DNA of 63,213 nucleotides, counting the filler. It is 4 parts of 4 records of this genome, joined end to end, with 100 filler letters (N's around TTAATTAATTAA, not from the genome) between each part and the next. Parts side by side here need not be neighbours in the genome. Positions count along the whole stretch, not along the records: positions 43,063 to 63,213 come from SRR2962707_4369; 3 more parts are not named here. One strand, written 5' to 3'. Shown here piece after piece: positions 44,021 through 62,862 of the stretch. The notes beneath the pieces are model-generated. The model saw nothing but the letters and a program-made list of their open reading frames with translations, did not search any database and was not told the DNA's origin. Every line of letters begins with the position of its first letter. Positions within the stretch are counted from its first letter, which is position 1. The position numbers were made by a program, and so were the translations under genes.

Positions 44021-44133
44021 CTGACAGCAAGGTGATTTCGTTAGTGCTACAGAAAGGACGAGGAAGCAACAAGCGAGCGAAACGGACCACATCGCTAGCA
44101 AACAATGCTACTTAGGCTGCTCAAATTACGTAC
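44021..44133 (-). other. Predicted 113-nt phase-0 spliceosomal intron joining PKS-NRPS to hydrolase
   Basis: Donor ACA|GTACGT at 44133, pyrimidine-rich body, branch CACTAAC at 44046-44040, acceptor TGTCAG|GAT at 44021; splicing removes the TAG at 44097 and joins both frames. Confidence 0.75.
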
Positions 44134-47100
44134 TGTTGCAATGCTGCGCTCCGATTCTGAATCGTCGTCCTCCTCTTGCCATCGTGCAAATAACTTCGTT
44201 AGCGTCTTTCCAGGCCCACATTCGTCGAACACAGTGCAAGCAACGGCGACGTGACGTTTCGCACATTCCACCATACTGCTGAAGTGGCATGGAGCGGCAA
44301 CGTTGAAGCTCGCCAATGTGGTCACAATGTCCGCCGGGTCAGAACCAGGTGGAAAGTATCGAGCCTCGTTCGCAGTATTCAGGACTAGCCCAATTTTATT
44401 TGGTTGGAAAAGAGCTGACGCGCGTCGAACAGCCTGGCCGTACTCGGCCGCTGCTTCCGCCACTGCCGGTGTATGGAAAGCCGCATGCACGGGCAGGAGC
44501 CGACAGCCAGCGCCTTGATTTTCCAGCACGCGGCGTGCTTCTTTAACCGCAGTCAACGTACCAGCAACGACGAAAGTGAGGCGCGTTAAGTGGTTGGCGA
44601 TTGAAACGCCACGGCAATGATCTCGCAACGTTGCCTCCAGCGTCGCACAATCAACGCCTCTGACAGCAAGCATAGCTCCAGGTTCAACGCGCTGAAGACA
44701 AGCACCACGTTCAATGACCAAGTCTAATCCGTCCTCGACAGACAAAGCACCGCTTGCAACGACCGCTGACATTTCTCCAAGGCTGAGTCCGAACACGACA
44801 CTTGATCCATCTATGGTCGTGGCGCTGCCGTCGCCAGTTCCATCGACGCAAAGCTCACTTTTCTTACACTCGCCGTAGACGTATCGGTCGAAAAACGCTA
44901 GGACACTGTCGACAAAGGTGAATACTTGGATTTCAGTCGTCGTGACAAATTTAATCAAGTCGGGGTCACAGCTTAGTTTTTGGGCGGCAACTTGCATCAG
45001 GCGACGGTTTGAATGGCGAATGTCTTCTTGTACACCCTGCCCAGGGAACATCACAACAACTGTACGTGGTGCGATATCCGCTGGAAGCATTGTTGTAGCA
45101 GGAGCAGTCGTATTGGAGTTGCAGTGGATCTTGCTCGCAATGAACGCTACTAGGCTGTCTATAGAAGTCCGTGAGTAGAGGTCCACGATTTCCAGTGCTT
45201 GGCCGGTAGCTTGTTTAATCATGGCCAACATGCGCACGTCCAGCAGACTCTCCCCACCGAGTTCGTGGAACCCGATTGTCGTCGGTATCGGTCCGTCATC
45301 AGTCTCGTCCCAGTGAAGCAAATGTGTCCAGATCGAGACAATGGCCTGCCGCACACGGAGTTCAAGCTGCGCATCGAGGTGTTGCGTGTCTATCGGCTCG
45401 CATTGCAGCGCCGCGTGCATGTCCGCTGAGGCAGCCTGGACCTTGAACGTGCTGCCCGCCTCCCACCACTCACGGTGGATCGGTTTTCGCAAAATAATAC
45501 TGTTGCGCTTGCCGTTGCTGCTGCTGCTGCTGCCGCTGCTTTTGATGGTGTTCCGTGTAACTGAGGTTGTGCAGGCAAACATGAACTTCTCTACAAATTC
45601 GCGCTCTTCCGGGTGCGTTGGACAGACAACGACCGACTCAAATCCTCGAGCAGCCAGCAGCGCTTCCCACTTTTCGGGTTCCAGCATCGGATTGTGAGGT
45701 CGCAATTCATAATCGGAGAAGTACCACCAGCCGTCAAGGATCCCCCATGCAAGAGTAGCCCACGTTTCATTGCGGCACGATTCTATGATAAACAGCGTCC
45801 CACCCGGACACAGCGTGTGTTGCAGGTTTTCAACGGAAAGCTCGATGCTCTGTGTGGTGTGAATGACATTGTATGATATAATAACGTCTAACTCACCGAG
45901 GATCCCTTGCGAAGCCGCATTTTTCGTTATGTCCATAACCGAAAACGTCATGAACGAGTACGTGGCACTGAACTGATCTCTGGCGTTTTCAACAAATGCC
46001 TTCCCCAAGTCAGTAAAAATGTATTCGATGTTTTTGTCACCCAAATCTGCCAATTTTGGGAGGAGCTCTCGCGTCACCAGCCCCATTCCTGCCCCGCACT
46101 CCAAGATCCGCACTCGCCGGCTAGGATTGCGCTTTACCAATTCGTGCACGTGGCTGCAGATGAACGAGCAGTACATGCCGTAATACACATTGCCCAACAA
46201 GTCTCCCAATTTCGTGAACTCTTCTTCAACGAAAAAAAGGCGTCCTTCGGGGTATAGTACGGTCAGAGGACTCGTTTTCGGCGGGTTTGCAAGAACGTTC
46301 TTGTACTGCTCGGACACAGTCAGTGGAAATCGAAATTGGTCTTCGAATCCGGGGTATCTCGCGGCAAGTTCCGCGCATTGGGATTGTAGCTGTGAACGCG
46401 TGGGGGGGTCGTCCACAACGAACGATATAGTGGGCGATGTCACTGTTGACGATGTCGCGTGAGTGACGCCTGGCCGAGTAGCTTCCCCACCTTCAACTAG
46501 AGAAGCACACATAATATGCAGAAGCTTGCCGTACTTCGATTGAAGCCCAAGACAGCCCAACAGTTCAAGCTCTGTTCCGATAAACTCGCGCACTCCCATG
46601 TCAGTGGCGAAAAATCGGCGGATAATCCCGTTCACAAATTCCAGCTGGCGACTGCCAAAATCAGGCGCAGGGCGCAGGTTCAAACTGTGGACGAGTCCAC
46701 GCACCATCCGGTGTTGTTCCTGAAACGCTGTGGCCAAGTCGTATGGCCCGAGCGGTGTTGCGCTCGCAGTCAGGCGCAATGTTGACACGCCTGGCCAAAA
46801 TCGTTTCGGGTTGAACAGGCATTGCGGAACGGACACACAGTGTTTCAAGGGCAACGAAGTGTTGTCACCGACATGCTGCGTCTTTGCGAGCCACCGACGC
46901 AGAACAGCCAGCCTTTCCTGTGGTACAGAACCGGCAACGCGCACAAACTCTGCAAGATCTTCGTCGCTGTGCACACTCCCGAGTCCGGGCAGGCGAGATG
47001 CCGTTGTTGACAATCGACGCAGCCACGTGTCAAGCATGGTGTCAGATTGCGGAAGAGTGTCCAGCATTCGCTGCAAGCTGCGCAGGTTTTTTGCCAACAC

Positions 47101-50100
47101 AGCAATGACTGCCTCCGTGCGATGCAGCGTGACAACACTTGTAGTGTAGCACACGTCACGAAAAGTGCATACATCATCACATCCGACAGTGCGTAGTCGC
47201 TTGACCAGCGAACGCAAAGCGCCCAATAAACGATGCTGAGACGGCGCGCTGACAATCAGCGGACACAATACCTCAACGTGCATGTTAGTAGTGGCATGTT
47301 TATTTGCGTTTTTACGGCTGGCAGCTAAAACTGCGTGCACAGCAGTGCCATTAAGGCCGAGCGAGGATACGCCTGCGATTCTAGGTTCAAATTGCTGGCT
47401 CCAAATGAGCTTCGACGCAGAAAGCCGAAGACGCGACGACGTTGACTGAAACCATGAATGCGGCGACGTCATGTTAACGAGTGGGGGAATTTCATTGTTC
47501 TGCAGCACGGCCAAAGTCTTGACAACACCCAACAGACCGGAGACGCTGTCCAAGTGTCCGAACCTCGCTTTAGAGCTCCCAATATAAACGGGGGAAGCGC
47601 CAGGAGAAGATTGTCCATATACTTCGTGCAGTGCCTGCAGTTCAATTCTATCCCCTAGCGACGTTCCCGTGCCATGTGCTTCGATATAGCTGACATCCTC
47701 TGGGTTTCGAGCTGCTTGGGCCAGCGCGCGCTGCATCGCGGTGACTTGTGACGATTTTGAGGGTGCAGTGATCGACGCACCACGACCTACACTGCACGAC
47801 GCTATCCCCGCCACCGTACCGTAAACACCAAAGCCATCACTGCGTACATCTTCGCCGCGACGGAGAACCAGTGCAATCACTCCTTCTCCCAGAATTGTAC
47901 CGTCCGAACCGTCCGTAAAAGGGCGGCAATGACCGTCGCGGCTCAGTACACCCATGCCTTCATACTCCCTGTCGTGCATGGGGATGCAGTGAATGTTTGC
48001 TCCAGCTACAACTGCCGAGTTACACTCTCCCCGCCGCAAGGACTCACAAGCAGCTTTCAGTGCAGCCAAACCAGATGCGCAGGTCTGGTTCACAACGAGT
48101 GAAGATCCGCGTAAGTTGAACACAGAAGCAACGTGTGTTTGCACAAACGCCGGGTCTAATCCCGGGACACTAGACGGGGAGTCTTTGGGCAGAACACTCC
48201 CGTAAGAAATGTTGGATTGGGCAATAAACACTCCGCACGTCTCTGCACCCCGGACAGCAAGGGGCATGTCTGCCGTACAGTAATGAAGGAGTCCGCAATC
48301 GTTGAAGGCTTCGGCAACCACTTGCAACACTAGCCGCTGTTCCGGCGCCATGTTGACGACTTTCTCGTGCGAAGCCAACCCGAAAAACGCATTATCAAAA
48401 TCAGCCACATTTTCCAAAAACGCACCATCGAAAAGCGGCGGCGGTTGCCCGTCAGCTCCCTTTTGAACGTCGGCAGCACGTTCTGCCGGGAACGCTGAGA
48501 CAAAGTCATGCATGCAGCTTGAATCGGAAAGTACGGTTCGGAGATCTGCGATGGACGCTATCGATCCGGGTAGACGGAGTCCAACGCCAACAATTGCGAC
48601 ATCAGACTGCGACAACGGGTCCACGCGTGCATTAATGTCAACGTGGGCACGTTGTTGCGTGCCAACTGGTTCACGCAATTGGGATGGACGGTTCAATCGC
48701 TGCGCGAGACGGCGCAGGGTCGATATCTCGAACATGTCCACAATATCAACGTCACTCGCCCCTGGAACTGTCCGAATCAGCTTGTTGTGGAACAGCATCA
48801 ATTGGAGGCTTGAGCCCACACTCAGAAGTGGGGTGTTCTCGACGTCCAAGTTCGTCGTGGATGGCAGCTGAATGCACTCCGACCACAGTTTCACAAGCAA
48901 CTGCAGCTGGTCACCGCTATAGCCGTCTTTGGACGAGTCGTTTGTGTGGGCCGGAATGTGCTCAGTGGAGGCTGTTGGATGGGCTGCAGCCACACGCTGT
49001 ACCTCCGAAAACGGGGGCAGGAGGCGCCTGGATACCTTGCCGTGTGCTGTGAGCGGAATGCGCTTCATTGGGTACACAAAAGTGGGGTACATGTACGACG
49101 GAACCACGTTTCGGAGACGTTTTTGCAAATCAATTGCTGAGAGCGTGGTGTCTTCTGTTTCAATGAACACCACAAGCGAGTCACCCTCCACCGATACCAC
49201 AGCTTTGTGCACCTCACTGCATACCGTCGTGATCTGGTCTTCGACAAATCCTGTGTTCACACGGAAGCCACGCACCTTGCGGATACCGTCAGCGCGGCCA
49301 ATAAATTCAATGTTCCCGGCGTGGTTGACACGAACCAAATCGCCAGTGCGCATGAATCGGCCGACAAATTCCCCATTCGAACGACCAGCGGTATCATCAC
49401 GAATACAAAGCTCTCCCGCTGCGAACTGCCCTACAGTTTGAGCCAAGTTGCGTGGGTCAACCAACTTCAAAACCACATTCTGCATCGCGCGGCCTATCGG
49501 AACAGTTCCGCTGGCTGTGTGAATTGGAAGAAAATTATTGGCCTCGTAAAAAGTGCTGTCGACAGTAGCTTCGCTCATTCCGTACGAATTGAGCACACGA
49601 GTAGACTCCGGAAGTGCGAGGCGGATGGAGTTAAAAGTGTGTGTGTGCAGAACATCCGACCCACAGACCAGAATTCGGAGGCAGGCCAGTTGTTCACTTT
49701 CCCACTTCACCAGCTCTGAGGCAAAGCCAGGTGTGACCTCCATGACACTGACGCTGTAGCGCCGCACCAAACTCGCCACAGCCCGAACATCGATGCGACT
49801 TTTGGCGGGGCAGATCACCAAGTGACCAGCGCAGGCCACCTGCGACCGCAATATATCTCCCATACAAACATCGAACGAAAACGGTGCCCATTGAAGCATG
49901 GTGTCGCGGTTAGTCAAAGCGTACTCGGCTTGCCACGATGACGCCATGCAGTTGGCGTTGGCGTGTGTTATTGAGCACGCCTTGGGTTTACCAGTTGAGC
50001 CACTGGTGAATATTGTGTAGGCAACGCTGTCTTTGGTAATAGAACGACTGTAGAGACCGTCGTTGGCTTGTTGCTGCAGACGCGGAGCTGCCAACTTCAT

Positions 50101-53100
50101 GAGCTCGGCGACAGCAACGATTTGAACAGATGAAGGTGCTGGTATCGGCAGCGGAGCTTCTGAGTCTGTCACGACTACTTTTGTGTTGCACTGCGCAACA
50201 ATCTCTCCAAGCATCTCCAAGGTGCCCGCTACGAGGGGCGTGAAGCTACCGCCCGCCACCCACACGGCGAGTGGAAGGATCACAATATTTGGGGTTCGTG
50301 AGAGCACGAGCACAACTGCGGGATTCTGACGAAAATGTTCCAACGCTTGCAAACCGGTGGCCAGTTGCGTAACTGTAGCCCACAGTTCGTCACGCCGAAT
50401 AAGCGTGTCATTAAATGACACGGCCGGAAGGTGCGGGTTGCCCATACAGTGCGCCCGGATACGCGTGCACAGGTTGCCTGAACAACGAGGTGCACCCATC
50501 CTTATCCTTGTTGGCGCCTTGCTCTTACCGGTACGCGTGGTGGTGGTGGCCATAAGTTCGGTTGCCACGCCGTGCGCCCATGCCCCAGGAATGGCATCAC
50601 GGAATGTGATGTTTGGCTGGGCAGCTGCCCGACCTAGACAATCCTGGGTCAAACCAATGACGGCATCCACGAAAGAGGGCGCAAAAAGAGACTGGTCGTA
50701 CTCGACCACGATCTGGAGCACGCCGCCAGTTTCGATAAAGTCTACGCTAAGAGGCGTTTTGGCAGCAATGACAAACAGGTGTCGCGGGAGACCACTGCGA
50801 GGCCGTGGTCGTACCTCGTAGTTGAACATATTGTCGATGAGAGGGGCAACGTGCCCACTGGCCCGAATCGCAGCAACAATTTGGTCGAATGGTAACTGAC
50901 TTTCCGTATCTTCAAAAACAGTTGAAGCAACTTTGTCGACAAAACTAGCGAACGAAGCGCGCGGTTGGTCCAAGAAGGGCTGAAGGCAAAATCTGCAAGG
51001 CAGCGTCGCAAGAAACATTCCCATTTGGTCACTTCTGTGTGGAAGCGTGTGTCGAGAACTGATTGGCATGGGCACAACAATGTCGGTGGAGCCAGATAAC
51101 CGATGGAGCGTCAAAAGATAACTCCCCAGGAACACAGCAAACAGTTGCCCTGGGCTGAACTGACGCCGAAGTTCGTGGCGTACATGCGCGGGTACAGTTG
51201 CGCAGGTACAGCCAGCGGTGCCTCGCGTGTCAGGGTGGTCAGCAGCTCCAGCCCAATTGCACAAGTTAAGGGGAGACAGCACATCTTCGTAACGGTGCAC
51301 CCAATGCTGACGCGCTTTCGTGGCGTCTTCACTTTCTAAAAACGCCAGTTCAGCGTAGTGAGCCTCAACCATTGAGGAAAAGAAGTCACGCAAAGGAGGA
51401 GGGGTTATCTGCACAGGCCTCTGCTGAACAACAAGTGCCTCTAAATCCGATTGCAAGCATTGCAGCGAAAATGCGTCAACGAGCAGATGATGGAGGCTGA
51501 TGCACAGCAAACCACGGGATCTGCATGAATCAGTGATTCCAACAGCGTACGCCAGACCAGTCTTAACGTTGATAGGGCGAATGCACGCCTTTGCCACGGA
51601 AATTGCCTCTCGCATGTCGGTAAAGGAGCAGTCGTGGAAGATCAATGGAATCGCAATTGACTCTTTTGTTTTGGGTTGCAGCATCAGACCTGCACTCGTC
51701 ATGGCGACGACCATGTTTAAGAAAGGGTGCATTGAACATAAACCCCTGACGACGCGCCTGATGTGCTGTTCGTTGGGCTGTGCCAACACAACTGAAATTG
51801 TTTCGACATACCCAACTCCGTCTGGATTCAACGAGTCCGCCAACACCAATTGATTTTGGCATGCACGCAACGGTGAGTGCATTGCGTGGATACTCTCTTC
51901 CACCATTTGACTGCTGGGTTCCTGCAACGGGATGCGCGACACTGCTGCTGCAACTGCACCAAACTTACGGGCTTGCAGAAAAACGGCTGCTTCAATGCGC
52001 AGCCCCTGCTCTCTCATTTTGGACTGCAATATCTTGGCCAATAGCGAGTGACCGCCGTGATCGAAAAAGTCGGAATCGGGTGCAACGGAGTCAACATGTA
52101 GAAGTTGCTTCCACAGAGATTCAAGAACCGCGGTCGCCACTGGTTCAGCAGCGGAGCCCCTCGCTGAGGCGGGCTTGGCTGACTCGCTGGAGCCATCTCC
52201 GAGGGCACTGAACGTGCAATCACGAATTGCAGTGAGCAAGCCCAGACCGTCATGAACAACTTCAGTGTCAAATAACAACCCCAACGAGAGCACACCGTTT
52301 TCAGCCCAAATAAAGAGCTCAAGCGGAGCAAGACGAGCTTCCGTCACCGGTCGATAAAAGCGTCCATGTTGCAACTCATGTACCATGACAATTGGCCACT
52401 GCACAACATCTGACCGGCGTGTGTCAAGCGCAGATAGATCTGACACGAGCCACATCGGTTTTCGACTGCTGGCTTCTAGATCTACCTCCGCCCAGATGTG
52501 TTTATTGTGTAAGTAGTCCTTCAACAATGCGTCAATGCTCTCCACGTCACTGTTCTTGGACAATTGAACGGGAACGCGCAGTGAGGCATTCACGACTGAT
52601 AGTTGATGTTTAGGGGGGAGTTTTTGACGCAGGCTCATATCAGCCAAGCCGAACAACGGGTCGAACGTGCCGCCGAGCGACAGCCCGGACGTCACCTGTG
52701 CTAACGCCAGCATGCACATTGCTGCCACAGAACGGCCGCTAACACGCGCTGACGTCGAAACACGCACAAATTTTGCGGTGTTGTATGTGCACCCACTCGA
52801 AATTGCAGCTCGAATTGTCTTCGTCAAAGCAGGAAAACAATGATAGGTTGCCATTGCAGACGGTAACCGTGGCACAGGTGAAGGAGCCTGGCCTTTCCAC
52901 AACATTTGCAACTCCTGGGCAAGAATCCACCACGCAGAAACGTCGACTGCAAGATGGTGCACGACAACAAAAACAGTTGTGCGATCACCATGCCAGACTA
53001 TTGTTGCGCCAACAAGCCTTCCAGTTTTGAGATCCAATGACTCTGTGATTTGTTTCAAACTGTCACGCACAATTGAACTGCTGTTAAGTAAATCCCACAC

Positions 53101-56100
53101 ATGTCCTGGCGCAACACCGTCTAGTTCCACAGTACGAACGCTCAACCGTTCAACAGCGTCACCAAATTGCACAGGTCGCATGGTTACCCCGGCTGCATTC
53201 TCATCATGTCGCTGAAATGACAGTCGCAAACCATCGTGGCGCTCTATTGCAACCGACAAGCCCTGTCGCACCGCCGATTCATCCAAGCGACCTGAGCTCC
53301 GAAGCGCGCAAGGGAATACGTACTGATTCGGAAAGAGTGGGTTGAGCGCAAAAAAATCTTGAGCAGCCGGACTTCCATTGTTTAGAGTGCCACTGTCGTC
53401 AGCACCAAGTCCGCTACCCGTGCCAGTCGCTCCGAGCGTTTGCCCAGCGTCCAAGCCATCGGAGTCCACGGAGTTCTGGGCAATCGCTTCTGACAAAATA
53501 CCCAAGATTGGAGTTGCCATGACGTCGGTCACAGACACGGTCAACCCTTGCCCCCTCAAGCTCAACATCAACGATACTATCGCAATTGAGTGGCCCCCAA
53601 GTTCAAAAAAATTGTCATCTTTCGATGGCTGAGTGTTGAGCCCCAATACTTTCATGACTGAGCCGCTCAAAACGTCCCAAACTTTGCGGCGCTGCTTTCC
53701 ACTGGCTCCATCGTTGTTGCTGTGCCCGTGGGAGCAACCTGTTGACGATTCAATCGCCAACGCACGCGCAGCTTCAGGCAAGTCCCCAAGTCTAAGCTTG
53801 CGTGCAACAATGTCCGCACCGTTGCGCGATGCCAATAAATCTTTGGTAGAGTCAGAGGCCACTGCAAGAGCAACAATCCTGTCTGGCATCGCGGCGGCGG
53901 GAAGTGCATCGCCAAGAATAGTCCTAACGTGCTGTGCAGCACCAACAAGCAGGGCATCGTGGGTTGTGCGCGTCATTGTTGTGGAAGCGGCCAGCAGCGC
54001 AAGTCGATCCACTTTGAATGTTTTGGTCGTGGGAATTGAAGGGATGCGCTCGATTGCAGACGGAACCATGAACTTTGGCAATTTTGCTGCTAATGTCTCA
54101 CGCAGTTTCTGCGTCGTTGGGATCACCCCACCAACATCTGACCCCGTGACTACGAATGCGACGAGTGAGTCGGCTCGAACCCCAACTGCAGCCTGCTTTA
54201 CGCCATCGATGCTCTGCAATGCAGCCTCAATCTGACCCACCTCAATACGGCGTCCATGCACCTTGACCTGCGAGTCGTTGCGTCCCAGGAAGTGAAGATC
54301 ACAGGAAATTGCCGACACCACAACCACATCGCCGGTTCTGTACTCATGTCCGACGAAACGCTGCCGCGTGAGTTCAGCGCGATTCCGGTACCCGCGACTA
54401 ACCGCCGCACCACCGACCCAGAGCTCTCCTGCGACACCTAACGGCAATGGTTGTCCGTGTTGATCTCGTACAACGCCGGTAACGCGTGGAAGAAAGGATC
54501 CTATGGCAATGTTGTCTTGACTTTTCGTGTTTTGCACGTGATGGAACGTGGTGAACAAAGTGCACTCGCTCGGACCGTACCCGTTCCAAAGCCGCACGCT
54601 GCGTTCGAGTAGCGCGCTCGCAGTGACCGCGTCTAACGGCTCGCCAGCTGCAATTACTGCATCGATCTTGTGGGTCCCAACGACCCAGTGGGACGATAGA
54701 AGCATTTTAAACATGGTTGGCGTCGCCTGTAAAAAATGTGGTGAGTATTCTGTAATGCGACTCCACAGCAAATCAGGGTCCACTTGTTCGGCTTCTGAGC
54801 AAATGTGCACATGCATGCCAAACTGCAATGGGCACAGAAGCTCGACAGCTGAAATGTCAAAGCAAGCTGCGGACACAGCAAGGCCGCGCTTGCCAGGCGA
54901 CAACTGTGCCATTTCACCGATCGTGCTGAACACATTTTGTACACTGCAATGGTAGACCTCGGCGGCCTTTGGTTGCCCAGTGCTCCCACTTGAATACACC
55001 AAAAAGCAAATGTCTTGAGGGCTGCACTCGTACACGTAGCCTTCTGACAATACTTGATCGTCGCGTGCGTGTCCAATGTTCAGCAACGTCGCCACGCTGA
55101 TGTTGAGGGCACGACTTCTGTGTGCATCGTCAAACAAAACAGCCTCAGCCTCACAATCCTTGGCCATCCATTCAATCATTTCAGTAGGGTACGCGTCATC
55201 CAAATGCACAAAAGCTGCGCCAACTTGTAAACATGCCAGCATAGCCACTAGCAGCTTGCAACTCCGCCGGAGGAGTAAAGCAACGGTTTGTCCATGGCGC
55301 ACTCCGTTCTTACACAGCAACGCAGCCACAGCAGCTGACGATTGCATGAGCGCCATGTTAGTTAGACTGGAGCCGAAAGAATCGGACACGCCAATTTCGT
55401 TCGGAATTTCTTGCAACGATCGCAAAATGCGCGAAAACACCGAAGCCAGCGCTTCAGAATCTGGAATCTCCGTTTTCATAGTTTTCGCCCCACATGGCCG
55501 CTCTGTGAGGGCCCCCGTCAATCCAACGTCAGATACACAAGTCAGCTTTGTGCAGTTTAAAACATGCGACAGAACGTTCGAAAACGAAGTGGCCATCGTT
55601 GGTGCAGTTTGAAAGTTGGACAGAGCGCATCGCAACACATATTGTCCGTGAATCAGCTGCAGCTCTGCCTCTGGCGCTGAAAAGGTTGAAACCTTGGCAA
55701 GCGCCGAGTATTGACACTGCACAACTAGCGACAAGATGGTGTCGGCTGGATTCAGCGAAACCCTGTGTTCCGCTGTGCCAGAATCCGTCTTCAAAATGAA
55801 CTGATCCGAGTGCAATAAACGCGACGTCCACAGCTGGAACGCAACGACGAGCTCTGCTGAGGTGCACGTCAATTGTTCAACAATCAACTCGGTGAGCATA
55901 GAATCCGCAGTTTTTGCAGCCAATGTTGCCTGCGCTTTGTCCGCGTAGTTTGCAGCCACTTGAACCTCCACGTCGTCAACTCCAACGATTAGCGTTCGGA
56001 TCCCACCCACCGTAGTTGCACGGCCTACTTCCACTCCGGGAATCCTCAGTGCAGCTTCGACGAAAAGAGGCTGTTGTTCCAAGTGTGGGAATATCTCGAT

Positions 56101-59100
56101 TCCACCATGGCAGAGTTGGCGACCGTAAAGAGAGGTCTGCACTCCAGTGGATGCATCGACGACTTTCCCAACTGCGCCATGCACGCCTTCAATTTGAACG
56201 CTGTGCTCCGGGCAGTTGAACGTCAGCGGTGAGCCGTCTGCGAGCGGGAAATGGCTTGCGTCTATTCTGTGAGCTGCAAGTGGTCGCGATGCGTGTTCTG
56301 TGACCAGAAGCACGGTGATGGAAGCCAAGGGACAGATCACATGCCAGGCGTTCAGCAGCAGAGGATTGAACGCCACATAACTAATGACGATATGCTGCCA
56401 TTTTGGCCGCTGAGTAAACTCTGCACCACACAAGCGCACAGTTTCTGGGGCCAGCACAGCAACTGTCGCTTCAGGGGAGCGCTTGTCGTCGAGTGATAGG
56501 ACGGTGCCTCCGACTTCCCACGTTGCCAATGCAATGGCGACGCCGTGTTCCGCCGGCGCGAGTCCGGGGTCAATTGCAACCTTTGCTGTTGCATCGTGCC
56601 GCAACAAGTGGCGATACCAACAGGCAGCTTGCGCGAGCCGTTCCGCCGAAACAGCCGCCCACTGGCAATCCACAACGCCATGGAGTCGGTCACTACATCT
56701 CGGTCGAAGGCACGTTGCAGGACGGCCGGTATAGCTGGCTGTGTGAACAGGAGGGAGTGTCACCGCGTCGTCACGGCGTACAACACGAAACCATGGCGCG
56801 GTTGCCGTGGCAAGATTCCCTGTGTCTTGCGTTGATGCGGCGTCATTGGTGGCGACAAATTTCACGTCGTATCGCCAGCCAAGCTCCGACTGGTGTTCAA
56901 ACAACTTCTTAGAAATCGAGACCGAGCGAATTCCAGGACACGTGGCAGCAACGTTGTCAAAAAACGCCGGAGGGAGGAACAGGTCATCGTCAAGGCTCAC
57001 GCGAACGCGTCTCGCCGGACAACAACGACGATGCCGCCTCAACTGGTCCAGCAACTCGTACTTGGTCAGCAAATTAGGTACATCGCCAACCCAGAGAATC
57101 CCCCCTGGGCAAAGCCTTTTGGCCAGCGTGACGAGAACTCGATGCGTGTATGCCGGCCCGGGAAAGTACTGAACCACACTGTTCAAAATTATGACGTCGT
57201 ACTGTGCATCTGCTGGAATTGTCGCGGGCAAGTCCACACCAACATGGAATCTGGCATTGTGCCATCCATTCTTGTTCGCCAGGTTCTGCGCCCGCTCAAT
57301 CATGCGCGCGGAAATGTCTGTGCCGACATAACTTTCGACAGAAAAGTTAGCCAGTACAGCCTGCATCGTCAGGCAAGTTGCTACGCCCACCTCAAGCACT
57401 GCAGCGCCACGTAAATGCGGTGCCAGCTTTTCGACTGTATTTGCCACAAAAGCGTCAATTTCCGCGTCTGCCATGACGCGCGTGGCGTCAAACGCGGAAT
57501 ACCACCCACCAACATCAGCATCGTCGTCCTCTGCTGCTTTGGTGGACAAATGATCCCACAGGGCGGAGTACGTTTGCGCGTTGCTCGGCTCAACGAAGTC
57601 CTCACTTTCTGGTCCAACGCAAAACACAACGAGAGGTTTCGTCCCGCGCGACCACGCCAAACGAGTACATGTATGAACCGAAGCCGGATCTGTGATGAGC
57701 GCGCCAATTTGCGAAAACCTCACTTGACTGCTGAGTTGAGAGATCGAAGTTTTTGGGCTCATCAGAACGAACGTGCGTCCATGCCGCAGGCATGCGCGCA
57801 CAGCTGCAACCCACGCAGTAGATCCCGCTCCAGCAAACACCGCAATGTGACTAGCGGCTGATTCGAGACTCTCCAACTGCTTCGACAGTGCAGCCTCGTA
57901 ACCCCCGACACCAGCAGGAAACAGCAGTTTCGTGATAGACATGCCCCGATCGTGGTCTTGAATGCTTGCTGCTGGCGTTGATGAAGAACGAGCCGCATTG
58001 GGCTGCTTCTCTTTAGCGAGCATGCGGCAGACGGGAGTTTGCAACGGTTGTGATGCGGCACACGAGAGCACCCGCTCGAAAGTGTCAAGAATTAACGCGA
58101 CAAACGGGCGAGAGTAAAGATCTGCGTAATATTCAACGCGAAGAACACACGTCTCGTTTGCGCTGTGCTCGGAAGCAGCCTCGAGCACGAAATCAAAGTA
58201 TAGATCCCACTTGCATGTTTCGTCTCGCGCAGTCAATCGCTCAAGGCCTAATTCATTGTGCGCAGCAGACCCACGTGCTTGAGCGCCGCTCTCACGACTG
58301 CCGGTTTCGTTGTGCAGTACAACTTCTACGCCGTACTGTGGTGATGTGATTCCAGGATCTGTTGTAGATTTCACCGACTGATCAAATTCAGATGGAAAAT
58401 GTGTGTTTCCCTGGCATTCGCGTGACCGTGCAGCCAGCTCTGCAAGCACGTCTCCAAATGTCGAAGCAGATGAGAACTTCACGCGCAGAGGAAACGACTT
58501 TGCAAAGCACCCAATGGTGGACTGCTCATCAACGCCTCTGCTCGCGACTGGTGTCCCAATGGCCAGGTCGTCTTCGCCAGAGAACAAGTGCACAAGAATT
58601 ACCACGCACGTTGCCAAGCACTCAAAAAGCGTTACGCCAGAACCTGCCGCAACGGCTCGCAGGCCGTCGATTAATTTTCTCGGCAAAAGTCGCACCGCTT
58701 TGGATCCCTTGAACGTGAACACCTTTGGACGCGGCTTATCGCCCGGAATAGTCACAGGTTGCAGACCTTTACATTCACGTATCCAGTACTGTCGTGACGA
58801 ACGTACTGCTGCTGAAATTGCGCCGTTTCGCAGTGCACACTTGACCAAACTCGCATCCATGTGTGGTGACAATGCAGCTTTCGGGGCACCACAGAAATGA
58901 TCGTATGCGTCCCAAAGTTCTTTGAAGAACAGAAAGTGAGAAGTGCCGTCGAATACGACATGGTGCACTGCTGAGCCGAAAAAATACCGACCGTCCGTCA
59001 TAGGCCACAGTACACACTTGACAGGGGCAGAGTTGGCGAGATCCATTGGCGTCTGCGCAAGGTCTTTCAACAAATCATGACACAGCGCGTTTACACCATT

Positions 59101-62100
59101 CTTCCAGTTGCCATCGTCTAGCTTAGAAATGTCCTGCACCACCCAATACGATGGCAAAAGCGACGTGGCTGTCGACGTCCGTTCGGTGTCGATGGGTCCC
59201 ATGTCCAGAAACACAGTACCAGCGGGCACACCAGACATAGTGGCAGAAAAGTCAAGCTGCTGACACAAAATGCTGTCAACAAACGAGGGCAGCATTTGCT
59301 CGGAGCTTGGGAAAAGTTCCCGCGCACTGGCAACGGCCATGCCCATGATACCCGTTACTGCTTCACGCGCGGCAGGTTTCAACATGGCGCTGTGAAAGGG
59401 GGCTGTGATGCTCAGTGACGTGAACCGGCAACCGGAAGTTGGAGAAGACGGCATTTGCATCGCCGTTCGAACCGCAGCTAACGAGGCCGGATGTCCACAC
59501 AACGTTAGCGTGTCCGGCGTCACAACAGCGATGGCAATGCCTCGTCCGCCCTCAACGCTTGAAGTAGCTGCATCCACATCTGCCCCATTCGCTCCGCGCA
59601 CTTGCAGCATCCACGAGTCGTTTCGGTAATCTGCAAAGGTCCGAGTGTACCGATCCACGCTGTGGCCCATGTGGACCAAGATGCGAAGCATATGCAGCGA
59701 CAAGGGCACAAGTTGCTCGTGGCGCTCAGCCCGGTTCAGGACGTGAACAGTCGCGGCACCTTGACTGAAGCCGATAGGTGGCCGCGTCGCCAGCATAAAT
59801 TGTTCATGGCGCATATTGACCCGGTGCAACAACTCCATGTACCCAACCATCTGCCATAGAAATAATTGAGGCATTTCATGCGCCATTTTTCCGATGCTGT
59901 TGGTCCCATCGACGCCCTCCGCAACGCGAAAAGCGGTGTAACTTCGGGTAATTTCTGACTTCACAACCATATCAGCGTCGCGTACGAATTGAGCCGTTGC
60001 CGGCAGCGATGCGGGTGCATCGCCAATTTGAACGCCATGCCCGCCAAAGAAAAGGCGAGTGTCTGCATCTGCCACCATTTTTCGAAAAGCTGCGGGGATC
60101 GGCAATGCACTCGGAACAGATGTCTTTGGCGCAGTCCTTGGAACTTGTTGTATGATCTGCAGCCTCGGTGGGGCCTCGAGCATCCGCTGAACAGGCAGTC
60201 TGTTGGGCGAAGTCTCAAATATCAATCGAAAAGCAACGTGCTTGGCCAACACGTGATTGACGGCCTTCTCAAACTCGGGCACTCGCAGCGGCCCGCGTAT
60301 CAGCAGTCCATTCGAAGTGTTGTAGGCGGTGGGATTGACCAGGTGTGCAGCGTAAACTGGTAGTTGGGAATCAAGGAGGGGGAATTCGGCACCTATCCGA
60401 CCAATGTCATGCGGGGAGACCGTTCGGCTGGAGTAATCGTTGCGGTCGGCCTCAATGCCACCATTCTCGCTCTCATCCGTTTCCAGAGAAGCAGCACTTG
60501 TCACCAATCGAACAAGCTCGTCAAGGCTGGCATTGAGACCAAACATTGCCGGCGCCTCAATTTGCACCCCAAATTCTTGGCGGCAAAAGGTTCCGACCGC
60601 TGTCGATAACAGCGAATCTACTCCCAGCCGCACAAGTTCAGTGGAATGCTCGTGCTCCCATTTCACTTTTCCTGCTCCAAGCCCGCATTTGTGTTCCAGA
60701 AACCAGCAGAGTCTTTGGCGGACAATGTTTGGGGACCTGGCTCGTGGCTGAGGTCGAACATAGGTTCCACCAACACGCGACCGTTCCGCAACGGCTGTGG
60801 CTATTGTGGGCGAAATATCATTGCCGATCGAGCGCGGCCAGAAACGCTGACGCAGAGCAAACAGTGGAGGTGGCAACAGTGGGAGCATGCGCGTGTCAGA
60901 GTAGAGCGCGGGCCAATCGACTGCTTCGCCATTCATGTAGGCACGGCTGGCCCCATCGAAGCTGAGAGGTTTCGGGCAGTTGCGTGCCTGCCGCTTCGGG
61001 ACGACCAGCGACGGGGCCACACCGCGCAACGCACTGGCGAGTTGATGCAAATTTTGCCCGCGAGCCACTGCACGATATCTGAAGTACGATTTGCGCGTCA
61101 CTCCGGCAGCAGTGGCTGAACGGCCCGCGTTGATGGAGAAGCAAAAAGAATTCAGCTGCCACTCTTGAATACTCCCACTCTCGATAGAGGCAGCGAACAT
61201 TTCAGCCTCCTGCCGCAAAGCCGCTTCAGTGGCACCGCGTAGAGTAATGAGATGATGACAGCTACGACTATCCCTCAGTGCAGATTCTGGCGGTGCCACT
61301 GGCTCGGCCTCGACAACCGCGTGCACGTTTGTCCCCAATAGTCCGAATGCGCTCACAGCGGCAAGTCGCAAGCCAGTGCGACTTGTTTTCGGATAAGCTT
61401 GCTTTTCGCGACAAACCGTGAACGGGAGATGTGCCCAATCGATGCTCTTGTTAAGAGTGTCGACGTGAAGGCTTGCCGGAATCAAGTTGTGCTCGAGAGA
61501 CAACAGGACCTTGATCAACCCTAAAACACCAGCGACACCGTCCGCGGTGTGCCCAAAGTTCGATTTGCAAGAGCCGATCTTGCAGTTTCCGGCCATGCGC
61601 CCCAATACATGGTCGTCCTCGAACGCCAACCACGCGTCCCGCAGCCCAGCGAGCTCGATTGGGTCACCTTTCCGTGTTCCGGTGCCATGCGCCTCGATGT
61701 AGCCTAGCTCGCTCGGGTGAATGCCGCACGCGTCCCAAGCGCGCTTGTACAGCTGGGCCTGTGCGACGGGGTTTGGGGCGGTGATGCCGCTCGAGCGGCC
61801 GTCATGGTTGGCCGCCGTCGCCAGTAGAGTTCCGTAGATGTGATTGCCGTCCCGAACAGCGTGCTTCCTCAGCTTCAGCATCACAGCCGCGGCACCTTCG
61901 CCCTTGGCAATGCCGTTGGCGCCGTCGTCGAAGGGCTTGCACTTGACACCGTCGCCGGTGATGCCGAGCTGGTTCCAGATGTGATTCGGCGTGTTCAGGG
62001 GCAGCAGATCCAGCGTGACGCCCCCGGCCACCGCCGCGGTGCACTCCCCAGCCCGCAATGCTTGTGCGGCCAGGTGCACAGCGAGCAACGAAGACGAGCA

Positions 62101-62709
62101 CCCGGTCGCGACCATCATGCCAGGTCCGTGGAGGTCGAACTGGAACGACACACGGCCGCCGATGAACGGCGCGTGGTTACCGTGGGAGCTGCTGGGCATT
62201 CTGGGCTCGGGCAGCAAGCCCTTGTACTTGTTGATTGAGTTGCCCACAAACACCGCCGTGTCGGACCCCACCACCGACGTCTGCATCCCGCAGTCTGCCA
62301 GTAGCTGCCACGTCACCTCGAGGAAGAGCCGCTGCTCCGGGGACAAGTTCAGCGCTGTCTGCTCGTCGATGCCGAACAGGTGGTTGTCGAACTCGTCGAC
62401 GCGCTCGAAGTACGACCCGAACAGGAACGGTTTCGTCTTGTCCACGGCGCTCCCCTGCCGCCGCAAAACGTTGGCAATGTCGGTCGCGCGGCGTTTCGGG
62501 AACCGGCCTTCGCCGACGATGTCGCTGCCGTCGCACAGCGCCTGCCACACCTCGGCGACGTTGTCGAGACCAGGCAGCCTCGCGGCGACGCCAACGACGA
62601 CAACATCATCATCGCCGCGTTCACAGACTGGAGCTCGTGATGGTGCCAGGGGCCGACTCTCGGCTTGTCCTGCCCCCCCGACGCCGGCACTGCCGGCTTG
62701 CTGTTCCAT
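44095..62709 (-). CDS. Hybrid PKS-NRPS megasynthase: KS-ACP-C[AT insert]C-A*[MT]-C*-A-PCP-E-PCP-C-A-PCP-KS-cMT-ACP-AT(-TE by splicing)
   Basis: 18.6-kb open frame, first ATG at 62709. KS1 ATGCSSS/HGTGT/KSNFGH (~62610-61305). ACP GVDS (~60615). C1 HHVVFDG (~58955). A2 YSSGSTGQPK/YGPSE/YRTGD (~55440-53995). PCP GGHS (~53590). E-like HHLAVD (~52950). PCP GGHS (~52050). C2 HHLLVD (~51485). A3 FTSGSTGKPK (~50470-49010). PCP VGSSL (~48810). KS2 NQTCASG/HGTGT/KARFGH (~48605-47320). cMT LECGAGMG (~46090). ACP GGES (~45250). AT FPGQG/GLSLGE/AFHT (~45065-44185). Asterisks mark degenerate domains. Confidence 0.92.
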   Translation of the reverse strand: MEQQAGSAGVGGAGQAESRPLAPSRAPVCERGDDDVVVVGVAARLPGLDNVAEVWQALCDGSDIVGEGRFPKRRATDIANVLRRQGSAVDKTKPFLFGSYFERVDEFDNHLFGIDEQTALNLSPEQRLFLEVTWQLLADCGMQTSVVGSDTAVFVGNSINKYKGLLPEPRMPSSSHGNHAPFIGGRVSFQFDLHGPGMMVATGCSSSLLAVHLAAQALRAGECTAAVAGGVTLDLLPLNTPNHIWNQLGITGDGVKCKPFDDGANGIAKGEGAAAVMLKLRKHAVRDGNHIYGTLLATAANHDGRSSGITAPNPVAQAQLYKRAWDACGIHPSELGYIEAHGTGTRKGDPIELAGLRDAWLAFEDDHVLGRMAGNCKIGSCKSNFGHTADGVAGVLGLIKVLLSLEHNLIPASLHVDTLNKSIDWAHLPFTVCREKQAYPKTSRTGLRLAAVSAFGLLGTNVHAVVEAEPVAPPESALRDSRSCHHLITLRGATEAALRQEAEMFAASIESGSIQEWQLNSFCFSINAGRSATAAGVTRKSYFRYRAVARGQNLHQLASALRGVAPSLVVPKRQARNCPKPLSFDGASRAYMNGEAVDWPALYSDTRMLPLLPPPLFALRQRFWPRSIGNDISPTIATAVAERSRVGGTYVRPQPRARSPNIVRQRLCWFLEHKCGLGAGKVKWEHEHSTELVRLGVDSLLSTAVGTFCRQEFGVQIEAPAMFGLNASLDELVRLVTSAASLETDESENGGIEADRNDYSSRTVSPHDIGRIGAEFPLLDSQLPVYAAHLVNPTAYNTSNGLLIRGPLRVPEFEKAVNHVLAKHVAFRLIFETSPNRLPVQRMLEAPPRLQIIQQVPRTAPKTSVPSALPIPAAFRKMVADADTRLFFGGHGVQIGDAPASLPATAQFVRDADMVVKSEITRSYTAFRVAEGVDGTNSIGKMAHEMPQLFLWQMVGYMELLHRVNMRHEQFMLATRPPIGFSQGAATVHVLNRAERHEQLVPLSLHMLRILVHMGHSVDRYTRTFADYRNDSWMLQVRGANGADVDAATSSVEGGRGIAIAVVTPDTLTLCGHPASLAAVRTAMQMPSSPTSGCRFTSLSITAPFHSAMLKPAAREAVTGIMGMAVASARELFPSSEQMLPSFVDSILCQQLDFSATMSGVPAGTVFLDMGPIDTERTSTATSLLPSYWVVQDISKLDDGNWKNGVNALCHDLLKDLAQTPMDLANSAPVKCVLWPMTDGRYFFGSAVHHVVFDGTSHFLFFKELWDAYDHFCGAPKAALSPHMDASLVKCALRNGAISAAVRSSRQYWIRECKGLQPVTIPGDKPRPKVFTFKGSKAVRLLPRKLIDGLRAVAAGSGVTLFECLATCVVILVHLFSGEDDLAIGTPVASRGVDEQSTIGCFAKSFPLRVKFSSASTFGDVLAELAARSRECQGNTHFPSEFDQSVKSTTDPGITSPQYGVEVVLHNETGSRESGAQARGSAAHNELGLERLTARDETCKWDLYFDFVLEAASEHSANETCVLRVEYYADLYSRPFVALILDTFERVLSCAASQPLQTPVCRMLAKEKQPNAARSSSTPAASIQDHDRGMSITKLLFPAGVGGYEAALSKQLESLESAASHIAVFAGAGSTAWVAAVRACLRHGRTFVLMSPKTSISQLSSQVRFSQIGALITDPASVHTCTRLAWSRGTKPLVVFCVGPESEDFVEPSNAQTYSALWDHLSTKAAEDDDADVGGWYSAFDATRVMADAEIDAFVANTVEKLAPHLRGAAVLEVGVATCLTMQAVLANFSVESYVGTDISARMIERAQNLANKNGWHNARFHVGVDLPATIPADAQYDVIILNSVVQYFPGPAYTHRVLVTLAKRLCPGGILWVGDVPNLLTKYELLDQLRRHRRCCPARRVRVSLDDDLFLPPAFFDNVAATCPGIRSVSISKKLFEHQSELGWRYDVKFVATNDAASTQDTGNLATATAPWFRVVRRDDAVTLPPVHTASYTGRPATCLRPRCSDRLHGVVDCQWAAVSAERLAQAACWYRHLLRHDATAKVAIDPGLAPAEHGVAIALATWEVGGTVLSLDDKRSPEATVAVLAPETVRLCGAEFTQRPKWQHIVISYVAFNPLLLNAWHVICPLASITVLLVTEHASRPLAAHRIDASHFPLADGSPLTFNCPEHSVQIEGVHGAVGKVVDASTGVQTSLYGRQLCHGGIEIFPHLEQQPLFVEAALRIPGVEVGRATTVGGIRTLIVGVDDVEVQVAANYADKAQATLAAKTADSMLTELIVEQLTCTSAELVVAFQLWTSRLLHSDQFILKTDSGTAEHRVSLNPADTILSLVVQCQYSALAKVSTFSAPEAELQLIHGQYVLRCALSNFQTAPTMATSFSNVLSHVLNCTKLTCVSDVGLTGALTERPCGAKTMKTEIPDSEALASVFSRILRSLQEIPNEIGVSDSFGSSLTNMALMQSSAAVAALLCKNGVRHGQTVALLLRRSCKLLVAMLACLQVGAAFVHLDDAYPTEMIEWMAKDCEAEAVLFDDAHRSRALNISVATLLNIGHARDDQVLSEGYVYECSPQDICFLVYSSGSTGQPKAAEVYHCSVQNVFSTIGEMAQLSPGKRGLAVSAACFDISAVELLCPLQFGMHVHICSEAEQVDPDLLWSRITEYSPHFLQATPTMFKMLLSSHWVVGTHKIDAVIAAGEPLDAVTASALLERSVRLWNGYGPSECTLFTTFHHVQNTKSQDNIAIGSFLPRVTGVVRDQHGQPLPLGVAGELWVGGAAVSRGYRNRAELTRQRFVGHEYRTGDVVVVSAISCDLHFLGRNDSQVKVHGRRIEVGQIEAALQSIDGVKQAAVGVRADSLVAFVVTGSDVGGVIPTTQKLRETLAAKLPKFMVPSAIERIPSIPTTKTFKVDRLALLAASTTMTRTTHDALLVGAAQHVRTILGDALPAAAMPDRIVALAVASDSTKDLLASRNGADIVARKLRLGDLPEAARALAIESSTGCSHGHSNNDGASGKQRRKVWDVLSGSVMKVLGLNTQPSKDDNFFELGGHSIAIVSLMLSLRGQGLTVSVTDVMATPILGILSEAIAQNSVDSDGLDAGQTLGATGTGSGLGADDSGTLNNGSPAAQDFFALNPLFPNQYVFPCALRSSGRLDESAVRQGLSVAIERHDGLRLSFQRHDENAAGVTMRPVQFGDAVERLSVRTVELDGVAPGHVWDLLNSSSIVRDSLKQITESLDLKTGRLVGATIVWHGDRTTVFVVVHHLAVDVSAWWILAQELQMLWKGQAPSPVPRLPSAMATYHCFPALTKTIRAAISSGCTYNTAKFVRVSTSARVSGRSVAAMCMLALAQVTSGLSLGGTFDPLFGLADMSLRQKLPPKHQLSVVNASLRVPVQLSKNSDVESIDALLKDYLHNKHIWAEVDLEASSRKPMWLVSDLSALDTRRSDVVQWPIVMVHELQHGRFYRPVTEARLAPLELFIWAENGVLSLGLLFDTEVVHDGLGLLTAIRDCTFSALGDGSSESAKPASARGSAAEPVATAVLESLWKQLLHVDSVAPDSDFFDHGGHSLLAKILQSKMREQGLRIEAAVFLQARKFGAVAAAVSRIPLQEPSSQMVEESIHAMHSPLRACQNQLVLADSLNPDGVGYVETISVVLAQPNEQHIRRVVRGLCSMHPFLNMVVAMTSAGLMLQPKTKESIAIPLIFHDCSFTDMREAISVAKACIRPINVKTGLAYAVGITDSCRSRGLLCISLHHLLVDAFSLQCLQSDLEALVVQQRPVQITPPPLRDFFSSMVEAHYAELAFLESEDATKARQHWVHRYEDVLSPLNLCNWAGAADHPDTRGTAGCTCATVPAHVRHELRRQFSPGQLFAVFLGSYLLTLHRLSGSTDIVVPMPISSRHTLPHRSDQMGMFLATLPCRFCLQPFLDQPRASFASFVDKVASTVFEDTESQLPFDQIVAAIRASGHVAPLIDNMFNYEVRPRPRSGLPRHLFVIAAKTPLSVDFIETGGVLQIVVEYDQSLFAPSFVDAVIGLTQDCLGRAAAQPNITFRDAIPGAWAHGVATELMATTTTRTGKSKAPTRIRMGAPRCSGNLCTRIRAHCMGNPHLPAVSFNDTLIRRDELWATVTQLATGLQALEHFRQNPAVVLVLSRTPNIVILPLAVWVAGGSFTPLVAGTLEMLGEIVAQCNTKVVVTDSEAPLPIPAPSSVQIVAVAELMKLAAPRLQQQANDGLYSRSITKDSVAYTIFTSGSTGKPKACSITHANANCMASSWQAEYALTNRDTMLQWAPFSFDVCMGDILRSQVACAGHLVICPAKSRIDVRAVASLVRRYSVSVMEVTPGFASELVKWESEQLACLRILVCGSDVLHTHTFNSIRLALPESTRVLNSYGMSEATVDSTFYEANNFLPIHTASGTVPIGRAMQNVVLKLVDPRNLAQTVGQFAAGELCIRDDTAGRSNGEFVGRFMRTGDLVRVNHAGNIEFIGRADGIRKVRGFRVNTGFVEDQITTVCSEVHKAVVSVEGDSLVVFIETEDTTLSAIDLQKRLRNVVPSYMYPTFVYPMKRIPLTAHGKVSRRLLPPFSEVQRVAAAHPTASTEHIPAHTNDSSKDGYSGDQLQLLVKLWSECIQLPSTTNLDVENTPLLSVGSSLQLMLFHNKLIRTVPGASDVDIVDMFEISTLRRLAQRLNRPSQLREPVGTQQRAHVDINARVDPLSQSDVAIVGVGLRLPGSIASIADLRTVLSDSSCMHDFVSAFPAERAADVQKGADGQPPPLFDGAFLENVADFDNAFFGLASHEKVVNMAPEQRLVLQVVAEAFNDCGLLHYCTADMPLAVRGAETCGVFIAQSNISYGSVLPKDSPSSVPGLDPAFVQTHVASVFNLRGSSLVVNQTCASGLAALKAACESLRRGECNSAVVAGANIHCIPMHDREYEGMGVLSRDGHCRPFTDGSDGTILGEGVIALVLRRGEDVRSDGFGVYGTVAGIASCSVGRGASITAPSKSSQVTAMQRALAQAARNPEDVSYIEAHGTGTSLGDRIELQALHEVYGQSSPGASPVYIGSSKARFGHLDSVSGLLGVVKTLAVLQNNEIPPLVNMTSPHSWFQSTSSRLRLSASKLIWSQQFEPRIAGVSSLGLNGTAVHAVLAASRKNANKHATTNMHVEVLCPLIVSAPSQHRLLGALRSLVKRLRTVGCDDVCTFRDVCYTTSVVTLHRTEAVIAVLAKNLRSLQRMLDTLPQSDTMLDTWLRRLSTTASRLPGLGSVHSDEDLAEFVRVAGSVPQERLAVLRRWLAKTQHVGDNTSLPLKHCVSVPQCLFNPKRFWPGVSTLRLTASATPLGPYDLATAFQEQHRMVRGLVHSLNLRPAPDFGSRQLEFVNGIIRRFFATDMGVREFIGTELELLGCLGLQSKYGKLLHIMCASLVEGGEATRPGVTHATSSTVTSPTISFVVDDPPTRSQLQSQCAELAARYPGFEDQFRFPLTVSEQYKNVLANPPKTSPLTVLYPEGRLFFVEEEFTKLGDLLGNVYYGMYCSFICSHVHELVKRNPSRRVRILECGAGMGLVTRELLPKLADLGDKNIEYIFTDLGKAFVENARDQFSATYSFMTFSVMDITKNAASQGILGELDVIISYNVIHTTQSIELSVENLQHTLCPGGTLFIIESCRNETWATLAWGILDGWWYFSDYELRPHNPMLEPEKWEALLAARGFESVVVCPTHPEEREFVEKFMFACTTSVTRNTIKSSGSSSSSNGKRNSIILRKPIHREWWEAGSTFKVQAASADMHAALQCEPIDTQHLDAQLELRVRQAIVSIWTHLLHWDETDDGPIPTTIGFHELGGESLLDVRMLAMIKQATGQALEIVDLYSRTSIDSLVAFIASKIHCNSNTTAPATTMLPADIAPRTVVVMFPGQGVQEDIRHSNRRLMQVAAQKLSCDPDLIKFVTTTEIQVFTFVDSVLAFFDRYVYGECKKSELCVDGTGDGSATTIDGSSVVFGLSLGEMSAVVASGALSVEDGLDLVIERGACLQRVEPGAMLAVRGVDCATLEATLRDHCRGVSIANHLTRLTFVVAGTLTAVKEARRVLENQGAGCRLLPVHAAFHTPAVAEAAAEYGQAVRRASALFQPNKIGLVLNTANEARYFPPGSDPADIVTTLASFNVAAPCHFSSMVECAKRHVAVACTVFDECGPGKTLTKLFARWQEEDDDSESERSIATVRNLSSLSSIVC

Positions 62710-62862
62710 TCCTCCAGCCGCCGGCGTAGAATCGTCTTTCACAGTTTGGTGCGACGGCACGACGCAATGGTTAACGCACTACTCGATTGCATCAGGCAAC
62801 ACAACGTGTGCAGTCACGCGAACAGCCGGAGGCGAACGCAGACAACAAAAAAAACACGGAAA

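Follow-up and report, generated by a model that had tools for sequence, protein, structure and literature searches.

A probable acyltransferase nested in a condensation domain of a hybrid PKS-NRPS megasynthase from a marine roseobacter

The gene described here lies in a window of 63,213 nucleotides (the whole stretch of DNA that was analysed) and encodes a hybrid of a polyketide synthase (PKS) and a nonribosomal peptide synthetase (NRPS), whose first condensation (C) domain, C1, is very probably split in its N-terminal lobe by a nested acyltransferase (AT). The initial annotation, made from the sequence letters, had proposed a C domain split by a full AT of the acetyl- or starter-transferase type found in fatty acid synthases (FAS), and both parts of this proposal are borne out by profile searches: in HMMER, split matches to Condensation (PF00668) flank a match above cut-off to the starter acyltransferase (SAT) family PF16073, and the sole relative that phmmer returned for the insert comes from an Aphanomyces FAS, matched at its N-terminal AT. 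The features on which this reading rests are as follows.

44095..62760, minus strand: megasynthase open reading frame (ORF) of PKS-NRPS type, 6221 codons in an uninterrupted frame, 6221 aa
60166..60384, minus strand: C1 N-terminal piece, aa 793-865, comprising the N-lobe elements strand 1, helix 1, strand 2, helix 2, strand 3 and strand 4
59149..60165, minus strand: predicted nested acyltransferase, aa ~866-1204, with a core alignable to FAS-type ATs at aa ~888-1202 and borders good to ~20 aa on each side
58036..59148, minus strand: C1 C-terminal piece, aa ~1205-1575, from helix 3 onward, including the catalytic motif and all of the C lobe
58945..58965, minus strand: HHxxxDG catalytic motif of C1, aa 1266-1272

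The split condensation domain

When aa 780-1600 were scanned alone against Pfam, Condensation (cut-off 30.6 bits) matched with 146.5 bits in two stretches. The N stretch covers profile positions 5-77 at aa 793-863 and scores 28.9 bits by itself, just below the cut-off, and the C stretch covers positions 101-440 at aa 1229-1575. A hidden Markov model (HMM) of 32 ordinary C domains also matched in two places, with profile positions 26-81 at aa 809-865 and positions 99-435 at aa 1225-1574, and because just 17 profile positions separate these two matches, C1 is whole but for its interruption. The size of the insertion was estimated by phmmer searches of both pieces against large NRPSs, in which 144 adjoining pairs of N-piece and C-piece matches were found in ordinary C domains; when one pair, the best, is taken for each of the 40 highest-ranking proteins, the pieces are separated by 357-393 aa in the query and by 11-56 aa in the target, giving a net insertion of 337-350 aa with a median of 342. 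C1 is not one continuous polypeptide of ~450 aa, being interrupted by ~342 aa net, and the insert of ~300 aa given in the initial annotation was therefore too short. All motifs listed there lie where they were placed, with the nucleophile motif at exactly 59772-59758 and the last AT motif at 59211-59194; the C motif is at 58965-58945.

In an alignment of 32 rows, consisting of aa 785-1590 and 31 C-domain pieces from large NRPSs, His1266, His1267 and Asp1271 of the catalytic motif are invariant, and C1 shares 23-27% identity with the 31 C domains, which are of the LCL type. The AlphaFold2 model of aa 785-1590 has a predicted local distance difference test score (pLDDT) of 81-92 at model residues 11-80 and of mostly 74-96 from residue 441 on; in its secondary structure, strand 4 ends at residue 76 (aa 860) and helix 3 resumes at residue 435 (aa 1219). 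Superposed on the C domain of Txo2 (6p1j_A), the model gives a Z score of 37.1 and a root-mean-square deviation of 2.7 Å over 426 residues within model range 6-803, and since so many aligned residues would be impossible otherwise, the 75-residue N piece should occupy its canonical place. In the structure search, 359 of 998 chains reached Z >= 8, and the top 50, judged by their titles, are C-type domains (C, starter C or X-domain) or NRPS constructs with one. In the predicted structure, both pieces together form the complete two-lobe chloramphenicol-acetyltransferase-like fold, as the initial annotation had expected of an intact C domain.

Judged from the model, C1 is a real and complete NRPS condensation domain and probably an active one, and the modelled insertion site is the N-lobe loop that joins strand 4 to helix 3. 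The exact border between C domain and AT is less sharply placed, as the short strand found after strand 4 in ordinary C domains might correspond to aa 866-874 or to aa 1205-1212. A protein language-model search with the whole 806 aa returned only plain Condensation clusters, at 0.84-0.85. C1 resembles LCL-type and starter C domains, such as those of Txo2, LgrA, SrfA-C and RzmA (Z 32-37 over 395-438 residues), and carries the same catalytic motif; it differs from ordinary C domains in being broken by the insert and in having a PKS acyl carrier protein (ACP) as its donor.

Family and active-site residues of the insert

The insert matches SAT PF16073 at aa 958-1123 with 46.4-48.8 bits (cut-off 22.8; E 5e-12 to 9e-13). 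A phmmer search of aa 864-1228 against 1,835,955,588 representative proteins returned two proteins at E <= 0.001, one being the synthase itself and the other a partial fungal-type FAS of the oomycete Aphanomyces stellatus, matched in its N-terminal acetyl transferase (E 2e-5, 29% identity). Moreover, an HMM of 120 FAS N-terminal regions from oomycetes, fungi and some bacteria matched aa 963-1191 (38.5 bits, E 3e-14), and it matched the C-terminal AT of the same synthase more weakly than the insert. The insert can be aligned with 24 FAS-type ATs over the whole stretch bounded by the first glycine-rich motif and the last motif, at 15-25% identity, and it keeps all nine of the columns that are invariant among them (Phe905, Gly907, Gln970, Gly997, Ser999, Gly1001, Met1051, His1123 and Gly1188). 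In the language-model space, the neighbours of the insert are clusters labelled SAT, FAS-AT-central and MAT, at 0.96 and with recognition 3352.

Other profiles are silent on the insert: Acyl_transf_1 (PF00698) gave no match at E <= 10, with the reservation that the HMMER filters can drop weak matches, and no NCBIfam family matches it. In a sequence search of the PDB, the insert weakly matched no more than three chains, all FabD, with E 0.043-1.4 and across the catalytic-His motif. On the sequence evidence, the insert is assigned to the acyltransferases of the fungal-type-FAS acetyl-transferase/SAT family. Four of its positions bear on what it might do:

59764..59766, minus strand: Ser999, predicted nucleophile in the G-x-S/C-x-G elbow, in a column invariant among 25 sequences
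59392..59394, minus strand: His1123, predicted catalytic histidine in an invariant column, preceded by Phe1122 (xFHS motif)
60037..60039, minus strand: His908, aligned to the Gln position of the AT oxyanion hole
59668..59670, minus strand: Met1031, at the position of the carboxylate-binding Arg of malonyl-specific ATs, from the FAS-AT profile and alignment

The carboxylate-binding site is occupied by Arg in FabD-type malonyl transferases and by Ile in the AT of yeast FAS. Met1031 aligns with the residue that precedes a conserved Gly in the FAS-AT profile, which is the Arg equivalent in FAS ATs.

The insert is like the N-terminal AT of fungal and CMN-type (Corynebacterium, Mycobacterium and Nocardia) FAS and the SAT of fungal non-reducing PKSs in its PF16073 match, its Ser-His dyad and its missing Arg. 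It differs from them in being nested in a C domain rather than N-terminal, in having Phe for His, His for Gln and three gaps, and in belonging to an alphaproteobacterium.

Proposed starter loading and competing explanations

Pfam places the domains of the synthase in the order KS1-ACP1-C1(N piece)-nested AT-C1(C piece)-MT-A-T-partial C-T-C-A-T-KS2-MT-ACP-C-terminal AT, where KS is ketosynthase, MT methyltransferase, A adenylation and T thiolation domain. The domains that the nested AT might serve or work with are these:

61189..62610, minus strand: KS1, aa 51-524 including a C-terminal extension, with Cys221, His358 and His404 present
60502..60645, minus strand: ACP1, aa 706-753, with Ser716 as phosphopantetheine serine
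44182..44799, minus strand: C-terminal FabD-type AT (Acyl_transf_1), aa 5988-6193, with Ser5993, Arg6018 and His6096

The need for a loader arises at KS1, which is the first domain of the protein and has its Cys-His-His triad, and for which neither a loading domain nor a cis AT was detected. In the Pfam scan of the synthase, no AT was detected next to KS1 or KS2, and no Pfam family was found in the KS1-ACP1 linker (aa 525-705). The only other AT of the synthase is the C-terminal one, which carries Arg6018 and resembles FabD and MdcH (NCBIfam models, E 1e-24 to 3e-27); it is likely, from its sequence, to be the malonyl loader for both AT-less KS modules. This C-terminal AT also has no His before its serine, Leu5992 standing there, and keeps Arg6018 and His6096.

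We give about an even chance to the reading, put forward first in the initial annotation, in which the AT-less KS1-ACP1 module has the nested AT as its starter acyl-CoA:ACP transacylase. Ser999, activated by His1123, would accept acetyl or another short, non-carboxylated acyl group from a CoA thioester, and the acyl group would move onto the phosphopantetheine arm of ACP1, ~75 residues upstream of C1, the ACP1 domain itself ending ~40 residues before C1 starts. ACP1 would pass it to Cys221 of KS1 as the starter, malonate would be reloaded onto ACP1 by the Arg-bearing C-terminal AT, KS1 would condense the starter with the malonate unit, and C1 would couple the resulting beta-ketoacyl chain with the amino acid that the next carrier domain bears. 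In this scheme, we infer the acyl substrate, the carrier that accepts it and the sequence of steps. A non-carboxylated acyl substrate would fit, because Met1031 stands at the Arg position, if the logic set out in PMC11775670 is followed.

Several observations weigh against this reading. The PF16073 match spans just profile positions 72-239 of 239, though the N-terminal part of the insert is backed by the MAFFT alignment, in which Phe905 and Gly907 fall in invariant columns. Phe998 precedes the nucleophile instead of His, and His908 replaces a nearly invariant Gln, each of the expected residues being present in at least 90% of the 24 FAS-type ATs; in addition, three gaps of ~13-22 aligned columns separate the insert from the FAS ATs shown. 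The insert has a pLDDT below 50 in the C-domain model, where it has no alignment cover, its single-sequence model has a mean pLDDT of 31.2, and the AT fold is unconfirmed by any model. The synthase is a singleton in the searches, so that there is no evidence from conservation or covariation of selection on the insert. As well, only 453 bases upstream of the ORF lie within the window, and a separate starter-loading enzyme is therefore possible.

The same substitutions (His to Phe before Ser, Gln to His at the oxyanion position) and the three gaps would also fit a catalytically dead relic or purely structural spacer left by a past recombination, which might have been tolerated because this C-domain loop is variable in length. 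The protein holds other degenerate pieces, namely an A fragment (aa 1642-1726) and a partial C domain (aa 3143-3292), and its being a singleton points the same way. The frame of the insert is open, however, its composition is like that of the rest of the ORF, and the retention of 9/9 invariant columns, including the Ser and the His, at 15-25% identity makes a relic less likely; we consider this explanation quite unlikely.

The main rival to starter loading, itself unlikely, is that the nested domain is an acyl hydrolase (AH) that would remove acetyl or short stalled acyl groups from the carriers, in a proofreading role rather than as a loader, in the way of the free-standing AHs that accompany trans-AT PKSs; the initial annotation had not considered such a role. 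Two KS modules without a cis AT and a single malonyl-type AT for the whole line are the setting in which AHs occur. According to PMC11775670, AHs lack the malonyl-binding Arg (mostly having Gln there, less often another residue) and often lack the His before Ser, a residue strictly conserved in ATs and variable in AHs; in the insert, the corresponding residues are Met1031 and Phe998. In PksD-type enzymes, according to the same paper, Gln/His stands at the oxyanion position. Trans-AT PKSs with an AT and an AH (PksC/PksD, PedD/PedC) seem to be like the present synthase in having AT-less KS modules, one malonyl-specific, Arg-bearing and one Arg-less AT-like unit, and a residue other than His before the Ser (PMC11775670). 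They differ from it in that both AT-like units are here fused in cis and the Arg-less one is of the FAS/SAT family, not the FabD family, and nested in a C domain.

Against a hydrolase, the insert falls in the FAS-AT/SAT family, outside the FabD-like family that includes those hydrolases, and matches neither PF00698 nor an NCBIfam family, whereas the C-terminal AT matches FabD models. The Arg is likewise missing from FAS-type acetyl transferases, and PksD needs its Gln124 for hydrolysis (Q124A is inactive, PMC11775670), where the insert has Met. Moreover, a hydrolase would leave the assembly line without a starter loader.

A further alternative, which we regard as quite improbable, is that the nested AT would acylate another target, either a downstream peptidyl carrier or, in tailoring by O- or N-acylation (the second option of the initial annotation), a hydroxyl or amine on the chain being built. 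The catalytic dyad is intact, and the architecture would place the AT inside the very domain where donor and acceptor carriers meet, both of which are consistent with such a role. Known members of the family, however, move acyl groups between CoA and carrier thiols, the sequence gives no hint of another acceptor, and KS1 would still be without a starter loader.

Junctions, recurrence and genomic setting

An assembly chimera or sequencing artefact would explain the arrangement in another way, and it would agree with the absence of a second example from all sets searched. A contig of run X1 spans 57900-60600, and a contig of run X2, possibly an RNA run and from another study (2019), spans 58725-60600 and thus both junctions; each shows 0 differences, no joints and no loose ends. 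X1 and X2 share one organism label and X1 is possibly the source of the sequence itself, which tempers this agreement. Both junctions are nevertheless crossed by contigs of two studies, they lie in frame within the 6221-codon ORF, and the composition is uniform, so that an artefact is most improbable. The G+C content at third codon positions (GC3) is 0.575 in the insert and 0.569 +/- 0.074 on average in the ORF, a value within the ORF range, so that nothing in it points to foreign DNA having recently entered the gene. The junction support that the initial annotation had called for is thereby provided, and its remark that no AT-interrupted C domain had been described agrees with the literature searched, subscription journals lying largely outside it, in which no report of an interrupted or split condensation domain, or of one bearing a second catalytic domain, was found, in part going by titles and the opening lines of abstracts. 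Furthermore, in two reviews searched by word, one on C domains (2024) and one on NRPSs that break the rules (2022), nested domains were found in A domains only.

The architecture is a singleton in everything searched. The orthologue searches detect relatives of this sequence and would miss an unrelated AT inserted in another C domain. Among the matches listed for proteins of 3421-10887 aa, one of 120 carries PF16073, and this is the synthase itself; among matches of 443-1411 aa, PF16073 was found in 0 of 14. No relative of the query was confirmed in GTDB genomes, and JGI metagenomes gave one locus, in which only residues 454-788 matched, at 25%, both searches reaching close relatives only. The insert is present in none of three close genomes, and in the 401 genomes of the family nothing convincing was found, the one match being of 46 aa (E 8.7e-4) with an internal stop. 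At the level of the class, PF16073 was found in one of 401 genomes, weakly, with a positive Corynebacterium control. This sole match of the class, L083 (G526:C77:57157-57564), scores 21.8 bits in an open frame of 326 aa and is apparently a stand-alone AT-like gene.

A close known parallel is the interrupted A domain of NRPSs, in which a second catalytic domain (methyltransferase, oxidase, ketoreductase or monooxygenase) is likewise nested in a loop of a core domain. Interrupted A domains keep all motifs of the host domain and act as bifunctional units, according to PMC8949500 and PMC8341866. In the present case, by contrast, the host is a C domain, the guest is an acyltransferase, and the insertion point is in the N lobe, after strand 4 and before helix 3. 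Each part is a member of a known family, and it is their arrangement that is apparently new. It is a tentative proposal, to which we give slightly less than an even chance, that this is the first natural interrupted condensation domain, in which a horizontally acquired megasynthase had a eukaryote-like (oomycete/fungal FAS-type) starter AT built into a surface loop of one C domain, giving a bifunctional C/AT unit.

If this holds, starter loading and chain hand-over would take place on one rigid body beside ACP1, and C domains, like A domains, would tolerate and exploit nested catalytic domains, which in the A domains of NRPSs have shaped both mechanistic thinking and engineering. An active nested AT would, moreover, represent a new priming route for AT-less PKS-NRPSs and a case in which a bacterial assembly line reuses part of a eukaryote-type FAS, and it would mark the N-lobe loop of C domains as a permissive engineering site for grafting foreign domains.

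Housekeeping genes of bacteria surround the synthase gene, coding for RsmB, PurH, M16 peptidases and an aldehyde dehydrogenase. With its counterparts in Sulfitobacter maritimus, Pseudosulfitobacter sp. and a Roseobacter metagenome-assembled genome, PurH shares 86-88% identity, and the host is therefore a marine roseobacter. The synthase gene would be foreign to this lineage, because PF16073 occurs in one of 401 genomes of the class and the insert is found nowhere convincingly in the 401 family genomes. The G+C content is 0.51-0.58 in the part of the window with the synthase (~32000-63213) and 0.57-0.62 at the window start, and the former part looks like an acquired island.

The remaining features of the synthase and of its surroundings are as follows.

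aa 1769-1907 of the synthase, minus strand: MT downstream of C1 (Pfam)
aa 2463-2916 of the synthase, minus strand: full A domain after the first MT (Pfam)
aa 3628-4051 of the synthase, minus strand: later C domain (Pfam)
43259..44101, minus strand: gene for an FSH1-family serine hydrolase of 280 aa, which shares 7 bases with the end of the synthase ORF
36869-37714, plus strand: gene for an ankyrin-repeat protein, within the low-G+C part
within the low-G+C part: gene for a GH38-like protein of 1279 aa

No thioesterase (TE) or reductase (R) domain was detected by Pfam in the 6221-aa synthase, and for this reason the FSH1-family hydrolase could be a candidate release enzyme. The second C domain (aa 3143-3292; 52885-53334, minus strand) matches only profile positions 22-165 of 456 and may have a truncated or very divergent C lobe. 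After C1, a weak fragment of an A-domain N-terminus is found at aa 1642-1726 (E 7e-4, under the cut-off), and ~550 aa without a Pfam family lie between the MT and the full A domain; the region of aa 1642-2460 (55381-57837, minus strand) may be a degenerate interrupted A domain.

The protein recorded for the synthase gene is, at 6204 aa, 17 aa shorter than the product of the longest ORF, which begins at a GTG, so that the true start (region 62710-62760, minus strand) is uncertain. The low-G+C part of the window also has several ORFs without a Pfam family. The KS1 region has a GC3 of 0.76 against 0.57 across the ORF, and one 150-codon window within the ORF reaches 0.89; the raised value at KS1 may reflect a separate origin or recombination.

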